A stretch of DNA of 64,000 nt. Origin: Escherichia phage vB_Eco_T-01. Made by a program: the position numbers and the translations under genes. Location: the sequence record PQ438391.1. The stretch is one strand, 5' to 3'. Positions 10,315 to 10,899 of the stretch are shown here, one piece after another (position 1 is the stretch's first letter; every line of letters starts with the position of its first letter). A model generated the notes under the pieces. That model did not search any database, was not told the DNA's origin, and saw only the letters and a program-made list of their open reading frames with translations.

Positions 10315-10348
10315 AGCCCCGACCGAAAGGTTGGGGCTTTTTAGTATA
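10315..10348 (+). terminator. rho-independent terminator hairpin (gccccgaccgaaaggttggggc + T-run), copy 1 of a 34-bp direct repeat
   Basis: GC stem with T-run; identical sequence recurs at 10866..10899. Confidence 0.6.
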
Positions 10349-10352
10349 AATA
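10345..10352 (+). promoter_or_regulatory. candidate late promoter (TATAAATA)
   Basis: Exact TATAAATA 37 bp upstream of the ORF starting at 10389. Confidence 0.4.
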
Positions 10353-10388
10353 TAATATATTAAATCACGAATTAAAACAGGAAATAAG

Positions 10389-10862
10389 ATGAAATCATAT
10401 GCTCAATTTTTAAATGAAGCGGTGTTAAATGAAGCATCTAGCACCGAAATTCAAGCTGTTGCAAAAGCTGCCATTGCCGCGGGTAAATATTCCTATAAAG
10501 ATGCTTCTGATGAGTCACGATTCCAATTTGCTCGCGATATGAAAGCGGAAGGATTTACAGGGAATGCAGTTAGTATGGCCTGGAAAAGTCTAGTTGCTAC
10601 TGGAGCTGCTTTTGCAAAGGCTTCAGGTAAACCTGCTCCTAAAGCAGATCCTAAAGTCACACAAGAGAAAAATATTGTTAAAGGAATTATCTCTAAATAT
10701 GAAGCTATCCTTAAAGAGCTTTTAGTAATCAAAACCGAAGGCCAAAAGTTAGCCCGTGCTTATAGTTTCAAAGATAATCCGCATGCTCACTCTCTTGAGT
10801 ATGTTGAAGACATCCAAAAAATTATTAAAGACCGCATTTGGTCTGCTAAACAAATCAAATAA
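10389..10862 (+). CDS. internal-protein-like protein (N-terminus MKSYAQFLNEA)
   Basis: 157 aa, N-terminal capsid-targeting-like motif, flanked by identical terminator repeats. Confidence 0.55.
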   Translation: MKSYAQFLNEAVLNEASSTEIQAVAKAAIAAGKYSYKDASDESRFQFARDMKAEGFTGNAVSMAWKSLVATGAAFAKASGKPAPKADPKVTQEKNIVKGIISKYEAILKELLVIKTEGQKLARAYSFKDNPHAHSLEYVEDIQKIIKDRIWSAKQIK

Positions 10863-10865
10863 CAT

Positions 10866-10899
10866 TCTTAGCCCCGACCGAAAGGTTGGGGCTTTTTAG
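10866..10899 (+). terminator. rho-independent terminator hairpin, copy 2 of the 34-bp direct repeat
   Basis: Identical to 10315..10348. Confidence 0.6.

Follow-up and report, generated by a model that had tools for sequence, protein, structure and literature searches.

A terminator hairpin repeat bounds late-type gene cassettes downstream of rnaC in T-even phages and is a probable recombination seam

Introduction

What might explain why a gene of Escherichia phage vB_Eco_T-01 (PQ438391.1) is enclosed by two identical copies of a 34-bp hairpin? In a 64,000-nucleotide stretch of this genome (hereafter the window; one strand, 5' to 3', position 1 being its first letter), the sequence CTTAGCCCCGACCGAAAGGTTGGGGCTTTTTAGT stands on either side of ORF157, an open reading frame (ORF) of 157 amino acids that lies between the small stable RNA gene rnaC and a homolog of e.8. 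The original prediction, drawn from the letters of the window, was that this internal-protein-like gene is a module that can be swapped by recombination between the repeats, as proposed for promoter/stem-loop cassettes in T4-type genomes. ORF157 is probably the payload of a terminator-bounded late-gene cassette, in which the hairpin would act as a recombination seam and the payloads would be internal head proteins. This is a known kind of phage gene shuffling and not a new principle.

The closest described system is the promoter/stem-loop element termed PeSL (Arbiol et al. 2010, PMC2839356; Comeau et al. 2014, PMC4122927). There, as here, a repeated intergenic stem-loop terminator brackets a non-essential gene in a hyperplastic region, related phages have a single element and no gene at the same site, crossovers fall in or beside the stem-loop, the element supplies the gene's own transcription signals, and it recurs at other loci. 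However, what defines a PeSL is the strong early promoter of sigma-70 type beside its stem-loop (TTTACW-N17-TAYWAT for T4 and PST, PMC4122927), whereas copy 1 of the repeat described here is followed by the late box TATAAATA. The repeat here is about 34-40 bp long rather than about 100 bp, and its stem is that of a tRNA-operon terminator, unlike the AGNA-loop-TCNT type of the T4/PST pair. Late promoters are not mentioned in the two PeSL papers (PMC2839356, PMC4122927), which do describe a middle-promoter variant, PmSL. Judged by its predicted promoter, the ORF157 element is not a canonical PeSL, since it fails the defining early-promoter test; the likeness originally proposed holds for the bracketing stem-loop and not for the promoter. 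PST, the partner of T4 in the 2014 paper, has an empty site at this locus.

A second comparison is with the internal protein loci of T-even phages (Repoila et al. 1994, as cited in PMC3012670 and PMC4122927), which by these accounts hold diverse small genes whose products share only a capsid-targeting sequence (CTS) of about 10 residues. Gene number and identity vary among close relatives both there and here, and the conserved leader is thought, in the same accounts, to aid shuffling. The T4 loci so described are ipI, between 57B and tRNA.4, and ipII-ipIII near e, whereas the genes discussed here occupy the rnaC-e.8 site, which is empty in T4, T2, T6 and PST and whose genes are called hypothetical in the records shown. 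The morons of lambdoid phages (Hendrix and colleagues, as summarized in PMC2839356) are likewise single extra genes with their own promoter and terminator, lying between conserved neighbors and missing from close relatives, and the ORF157 cassette has this anatomy. Unlike it, morons are in that summary not thought to be mobile through their regulatory sequences and lack conserved flanking repeats, whereas here the terminator is the repeated junction. Finally, direct repeats in T4 have been seen to give segment loss or tandem amplification with one repeat left behind (Srikant et al. 2022, PMC9391042), although those were chance 6-10-bp matches in the laboratory and the present repeat is a 34-bp functional element found in hundreds of natural isolates.

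A terminator hairpin repeated around ORF157

The features of the locus on which the argument depends are as follows.

10312..10345, plus strand: hairpin repeat copy 1, stem-loop 10315-10338 plus T-run (sequence match and folding), left seam of ORF157
10345..10352, plus strand: T4 late-promoter box TATAAATA (putative), overlapping the final base of copy 1 by its own first base and standing 37 nt 5' of the ORF157 ATG
10389..10862, plus strand: ORF157, 157 aa, N-terminus MKSYAQFLNE/A with a cleavage-like position after Glu10
10867..10900, plus strand: hairpin repeat copy 2 (sequence match and folding), right seam of ORF157 and left seam of ORF187
10942..10949, plus strand: late-promoter-like box AATAAATA (7/8), 35 nt upstream of ORF187
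10984..11547, plus strand: ORF187, N-terminus MKTYAEFLTE/A
11550..11589, plus strand: diverged third repeat copy, hairpin CCCTATC-TAAAT-GATAGGG at 11556-11574 plus T-run

The 34-mer occurs exactly twice on the plus strand of the window, in direct orientation and with a start-to-start spacing of 555 bp. No third match with three or fewer mismatches was found in the 64 kb, and 0 of 100 dinucleotide shuffles yielded any match. The claimed identity of the pair is therefore exact, but its coordinates had been placed at 10315-10348 and 10866-10899 and had to be moved by -3 and +1, respectively; those of ORF157 were right, with gaps of 43 nt from the end of copy 1 to the ATG and of 4 nt from the stop codon to copy 2. 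Copy 1 begins 48 nt 3' of rnaC. The flanking bases diverge on both sides of the exact 34 bp; a repeat search extends the pair to 40 nt at 95% identity and finds the third copy in register at 65% identity, giving three in-register hairpins spaced by 555 and 683 bp.

Each of the two identical copies folds into a 10-bp stem, seven pairs of which are G-C, closed by a GAAA loop and with UUUUU directly after it (folding free energy, dG, -20.3 kcal/mol; z = -5.2). Both have the G+C-rich stem, short loop, adjoining U run and same-strand 3' position of an intrinsic terminator, they are the top two terminator-like sites of the first 20 kb, and no other place in the window has the hairpin core pattern. 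Terminators have been annotated by other groups at both sites in the G50, GiZh and Lutter records. An Rfam scan of 8000-11500 returned tRNAs only, with no family for the hairpin, rnaC or rnaD. Copy 1 is thus the predicted intrinsic terminator of the tRNA/rnaD/rnaC unit, copy 2 that of ORF157, and the third copy that of ORF187. The third copy differs from the other two by paired (compensatory) base changes, is invariant across all ORF187 carriers read, has as its right flank the T4-type sequence upstream of e.8, and aligns with the single hairpin of T4. The position of the hairpin downstream of rnaC is common to Tequatrovirus, Mosigvirus and Gaprivervirus loci. The rnaC trailer also holds, at 10286-10299, a partial copy of both hairpin arms (CCCCGACAAGGTTG) 20 nt 5' of copy 1; we considered an antiterminator-like pairing with it and dropped the idea, as folding in context retains the terminator hairpin.

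The order of features in the window is tRNA genes, ORF116, a gene for an rnaD-like RNA, rnaC, copy 1, TATAAATA, ORF157, copy 2, AATAAATA, ORF187, the diverged hairpin and e.8. TATAAATA is invariant in all Tequatrovirus-type ORF157 carriers read, and the Lutter record annotates an 8-bp promoter there. Directly 5' of the ATG at 10389 stands the purine-rich AACAGGAAATAAG, so that the element ends, as a PeSL does, in the Shine-Dalgarno sequence and start codon of its gene. AATAAATA may also act as a promoter, a function suggested by its being constant in eight ORF187 carriers although the adjacent bases vary; the same box takes the place of TATAAATA upstream of the Mosigvirus ORF154 allele. No early-type promoter-like match exists between copy 1 and ORF157, and after copy 2 there is only a weak one, ATCACA-17-GATAAT (9/12). 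An early-type promoter-like site does lie before e.8, at 11714-11742.

Site content among T-even relatives

We surveyed the site with a 1.9-kb rnaC-to-e.8 query, which returned 714 phage records in discrete length classes (the survey as a whole covering about 714-745 T-even GenBank records), counted each site state separately with targeted queries, and read the site directly in about 30 GenBank and metagenome loci, the genomes read including 16 carriers. The counts for ORF157 and ORF187 carriers overlap with those for two-gene records.

ORF157 present: 469 records, always as a single copy
ORF187 present: 164 records, nearly all at least 95% identical
Both genes: 127 records
Empty junction (rnaC flank, one hairpin, e.8 flank): 81 records, an over-count of independent isolates because several resequenced T4 genomes are among them
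rnaC flank, hairpin, ORF187 leader: 43 records

The site is gene-free with a single hairpin in T4, T2, T6, RB3, RB55 and PST; it holds ORF157 alone in GiZh, G3G6, Lutter and LF82-9, ORF187 alone in RB69 and ESh27, both genes in the window, G50, ime09 and BW-1, and a third gene, ORF208, in FL18 and LF82-33. In EP32a the hairpin leads directly to the next Mosigvirus gene, and in the Gaprivervirus CJ20 a membrane-like ORF184 occupies the site. CTTAGCCCCGACCGAAAGGTTGGGGCTTTTTAGT is confined to the rnaC-e.8 locus in Tequatrovirus genomes, typically at two places per whole genome, and only six exact hairpin matches were found in IMG/VR. The comparison of T-even genomes that the original prediction called for thus gave the expected result, a content that varies at a conserved hairpin, and ORF157 without flanking hairpins was not seen in any of the 16 carriers read. 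The prediction that the content between the repeats varies holds for the presence of the gene and for its neighbors; between the near-identical copies themselves the gene is always ORF157.

Two carriers deserve separate mention. A frameshift breaks the ORF187 homolog of the RB69 reference (NC_004928.1, positions 1784-2346 of the stretch read) into two ORFs, RB69ORF149c and RB69ORF148c, which reflects either a pseudogene or a sequencing error; in the Mosigvirus ESh27 it is intact at 187 aa. In FL18 (positions 4367-4440 of its stretch), ORF208 ends in a distinct hairpin with a UUCG loop, GGGGACTTCGGTCCCC, followed by the T4 early-type promoter GTTTAC-N17-TACTAT. By its predicted signals, the right end of FL18 ORF208 is a canonical PeSL-like composite and the left end a late-type hairpin junction.

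Junctions at the hairpin

Across these genomes the hairpin joins three left flanks (the rnaC trailer and the ends of ORF157 and ORF187) to four right flanks (the leaders of ORF157, ORF187 and ORF208 and the region upstream of e.8) in five combinations. When relatives are aligned with the window by BLAST, the alignments break at 10342-10357, 10867, 10897-10900 and 11556-11572, that is, within the hairpins or at their edges. The T4 site consists of left flank, one hairpin and e.8 flank with no scar, which matches the product of a crossover between two hairpin copies. RB69 and ESh27 have the Mosigvirus 5' arm CCCCTTCC (TTCC) next to the leader of ORF187. In Tequatrovirus that leader comes after the CCCCGACC hairpin, so that this mixture of arm and leader would place a crossover within the approximately 21 identical bases that run from the loop through the T-run. 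In RB69 the block from ORF187 to e.8 is 94.8% identical to the window and its flanks 79-86%.

The stem variants follow a similar pattern. A two-base variant, CCCCAGCC (AGCC), is found at copy 1 in four genomes and at copy 2 in two others. The 5'-arm variant agrees at both copies within a lineage, being GACC in most Tequatrovirus read and TTCC in the two Mosigvirus read; the Mosigvirus ORF154, a 76%-identical allele of ORF157, has the TTCC arm in both flanking copies, with loops that differ. In this small sample, the arm and variant patterns, together with the RB69 and ESh27 junction and the RB69 identity block, fit occasional exchange or conversion between copies.

The cassette products

Of all phage proteins, the internal proteins enter the cell first; IPI* is the only one of them with a known function, and it blocks a restriction system. 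Are ORF157 and ORF187 genes of this kind? Both carry the residues Y4, F7, L8 and E10 of a capsid-targeting sequence; in IPIII, positions 4 and 7 govern capsid targeting and positions 8 and 10 govern processing by gp21 (PMC9026906). The mature forms of both would be basic, with a pI of 9.5 each. The CTS-like start M-K-[ST]-[YF]-x-[EQ]-F-[LI]-x-E is found in six ORFs of the window (starting at 7365, 10389, 10984, 16112, 16878 and 61969), and three of the four others (7365, 16112 and 16878) match PHROG families of internal head or virion proteins. The fourth, a 54-aa ORF at 61969-62133, matches phrog_1823, which has no function annotated, and sits where, by the T4 gene order, the prohead-core gene 67 would be expected. 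The label "internal-protein-like" is used here because of the N-terminal CTS motif, the late-promoter motif and the basic pI only, and these three features make internal head proteins the likeliest identity for the products of ORF157 and ORF187.

ORF157, ORF187 and ORF208 all score over their full length to phrog_2280, which has no function annotated, and PHROGs and Pfam place neither ORF157 nor ORF187 in a family annotated as internal protein, the former giving phrog_2280 and the latter no match. A large protein search with ORF157 gave 14 clusters, all of T-even-type phage proteins and all without names or domains except for one 94-aa fragment with a Pfam match. The AlphaFold model of ORF157, built on a shallow alignment, is all-helical with a pLDDT of 72. 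A literature search for virion proteomics of carrier phages gave no usable report.

A second locus and the limits of specificity

The hairpin is not restricted to the rnaC site. In FL18 (PP400780.1), the 30-mer AGCCCCTTCCGAAAGGTTGGGGCTTTTTTG stands on both sides of ORF185, downstream of rI (positions 1740-1775 and 2363-2393 of the stretch read). After the first hairpin comes the late box GTATAAATAT (TATAAATAT); after the second come an early promoter and then the neighboring gene. ORF185 is membrane-like, widely distributed (phrog_2143) and unrelated to ORF157. Two metagenome contigs have the flanks of the rI site with a single hairpin, which is the empty state. ORF184, a 78%-identical homolog of ORF185, directly follows the rnaC hairpin in the Gaprivervirus CJ20 and in a metagenome contig, and by record coordinates also adjoins it in JS98 and vB_EcoM_RZ. 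Read from these sequences, the hairpin with its adjoining putative late box is a recurring junction, at no fewer than two loci and in at least three genera.

How specific is the sequence itself? A metagenome scan with the 20-mer core CCGAAAGGTTGGGGCTTTTT gave 87 stretches, of which about 70 belong to unrelated contigs from freshwater, the sea or soil, and similar hairpins occur in phages of Klebsiella, Cronobacter and Campylobacter. The core is therefore a common terminator design, and the part specific to the locus is the full 34-mer with its unpaired flanks, together with its two fixed positions in hundreds of genomes. The concern that the repeat might be an ordinary terminator found at many sites is thus answered differently for its two parts: in Tequatrovirus the 34-mer is confined to this locus, but the 20-nt core is common in unrelated contigs. 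Several groups of environmental contigs also share the flanks of CCGAAAGGTTGGGGCTTTTT, and one environmental contig (Ga0209066_10000289) carries the core three times at intervals of about 3-4 kb, with left flanks that resemble one another; this terminator design may thus be repeated inside other, unrelated genomes.

Origin and function of the arrangement

The most probable explanation, in our view, is as follows. The 34-bp repeat would be the Rho-independent terminator of the tRNA/rnaD/rnaC unit, present again at the 3' end of an inserted cassette; the parts of the cassette, in order, would be the putative late promoter TATAAATA directly at the T-run, a ribosome-binding site, a gene with a CTS-like start and a terminator hairpin. 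The window would hold two such cassettes in tandem, ORF157 followed by ORF187, the latter ending in an older, diverged hairpin. Each hairpin would keep late transcription of its cassette from entering the next unit, would provide the transcript with a stable 3' end, and would in addition offer a short homology for excision, insertion and recombination of cassettes by T4-type recombination. Unequal crossing-over of two copies could bring this about, or a circular intermediate like the mini-circles proposed for PeSLs. In RB49 and phi1, recombination between flanking stem-loop/promoter elements forms such mini-circles (PMC2839356). Deletions and tandem amplifications between 6-10-bp microhomologies arose in T4 during laboratory evolution (PMC9391042), from which a 34-bp direct repeat 555 bp apart should be recombinogenic. 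Recombination at the hairpin seam would yield populations with all the empty, single and double combinations and clean single-hairpin junctions. The N-terminal sequence would direct the payloads into the prohead, and gp21 would cleave them after Glu10; they would then be injected with the DNA and could plausibly counter host defenses.

Several observations weigh against this explanation. Copies 1 and 2 are fully identical in only about one-third of the genomes read and differ by one to four bases in about 10 of 16, so that exact identity is particular to the genome type of the window. Only about 18 of the 24 bases of the third hairpin agree with those of the other two, and the loss of ORF187 alone would therefore need a crossover within the approximately 9 bp of GGGCTTTTT. 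The efficiency of recombination in T4 reportedly falls below about 50 bp of homology, by which measure 34 bp is short. Because the hairpin core is common elsewhere, selection for termination alone accounts for part of its conservation. Cassette states could also spread by ordinary crossovers in the conserved flanks, rnaC and e.8, between co-infecting phages, in which case the junction pattern bears only on the first origin of each arrangement. As to the payloads, ORF157 and ORF187 are annotated as hypothetical in every record shown, Pfam and PADLOC gave no match for ORF157, ORF187 or ORF208, and the ORF157 model found no match outside its own family in BFVD or the PDB.

Might the arrangement instead be an ancient tandem duplication of a gene with its terminator, with ORF157 and ORF187 as diverged paralogs, hairpins kept alike by their function as terminators, and presence or absence due to recombination in the flanks? 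The assignment of all three proteins to a single PHROG fits this, as do the CTS, Pro/Lys-rich linker and helical C-terminal half that ORF157, ORF187 and ORF208 have in common, the register of the three hairpins with their 555- and 683-bp spacing, and the compensatory changes of the third copy, which are what would be expected of an old copy under structural selection. However, neither BLASTP nor hhalign, with or without the CTS, found significant similarity among the three proteins past the first approximately 11 residues; copies 1 and 2 are identical in the unpaired CTTA (5') and AGT (3') and in the loop, none of which is needed for termination; the empty site and all of the mixed junctions break exactly at the hairpin; and at the rI locus of FL18 this hairpin encloses an unrelated gene. 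We consider the duplication unlikely, though it is the alternative to be taken most seriously. A further possible source of exchange in this part of the genome would be gene conversion driven by homing endonucleases such as segB and its relatives of the tRNA region, in which repair would copy a long tract including the cassettes and the hairpins would be bystanders. segB lies among the tRNA genes of RB55 and PST, extra ORFs, perhaps endonuclease genes, stand within the tRNA clusters of Lutter, ESh27 and LF82-9, and the 2014 PeSL paper names homing endonucleases as a parallel source of exchange in such regions (PMC4122927). Such conversion is compatible with the spread of cassettes but not with the origin of the junctions, for it predicts neither breakpoints at the hairpin nor reuse of the hairpin at the rI locus, and there is no endonuclease gene within 9651-12049 of the window; as an account of the arrangement it is improbable.

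A third alternative, that the two terminators arose separately and converged on a common design, so that their identity has no historical meaning, is very unlikely. The recurrence of the core in about 70 unrelated contigs and of similar hairpins in phages of three other hosts is what convergence would offer, but it would not be expected to give 34/34 identity including the unpaired flanks and loop, for which chance predicts zero occurrences in the window, or a pair kept at two positions in hundreds of genomes, or a 5'-arm variant that matches at both copies in each lineage. We return, therefore, to terminator-bounded late cassettes joined at a hairpin seam, of which a bolder version can be framed. 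The hairpin with its late box could be a portable "late" counterpart of the PeSL, a unit of about 40 bp that brought various late genes to two or more loci (downstream of rnaC and of rI) in three or more T-even genera; the rnaC-e.8 site could be a third internal protein locus that T4 lacks, and ORF157, ORF187 and ORF208 could be injected to disarm defenses. We offer this version tentatively, and think it somewhat likelier to be wrong than right.

Genes of this kind occupy the site in about two-thirds of sequenced T-even phages, T4, T2 and T6 not being among them, which makes ORF157 (469 records) and ORF187 (164 records) candidate anti-defense effectors. With at least four well-populated states and one short, defined repeat, the locus is a clean natural test bed for stem-loops as recombination seams, where the rate and products of hairpin-to-hairpin exchange could be measured directly. 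For annotation, a terminator followed directly by TATAAATA marks a cassette boundary in these phages.

Neighboring features

The window is of the Tequatrovirus (T4) type, with 96-97.5% identity to many GenBank isolates over the region. Around the cassettes lie the following features.

8612..9632, plus strand: 11 tRNA genes (ARAGORN and Rfam), a matching cluster being annotated in G50, GiZh and RB3
9651-10001: ORF116 (phrog_3355), between tRNA-Arg and rnaD
9998..10119, plus strand: rnaD-like small stable RNA (species 2 RNA), 87-89% identical to the annotated rnaD of RB55 and RB3
10126..10264, plus strand: rnaC (species 1 RNA), 98.6-100% identical to the annotated rnaC of RB55, GiZh and RB3
11774..12049, plus strand: e.8 homolog, the conserved right neighbor of the insertion site

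The tRNA cluster has 11 genes here versus 8 in T4. ORF116 adjoins the position, upstream of tRNA-Arg, at which T4, RB55 and PST have the homing endonuclease gene segB. rnaC of the window includes the sequence of the RNAC Northern probe given in PMC9697503. For BW-1 (OR125554), in which the two genes are arranged as in the window, a laboratory evolution study reported a convergent single-nucleotide polymorphism in rnaD, just upstream of the locus; its authors speculate that genes farther downstream may be affected (PMC12685909).

Another direct repeat in the window brackets a gene at the ipI position. The gene at 7365-7598 encodes a CTS-bearing protein of 77 aa that matches phrog_8111 (internal virion protein), and the exact 24-nt repeat GTAGTGATACTATTACCCTATCAA stands on either side of it, at 7318-7341 and 7616-7639. 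GTAGTGATACTATTACCCTATCAA is the -10 part of two T4 early-type promoters, so that the bracketing there is by a promoter repeat, whereas at ORF157 it is by a terminator repeat.

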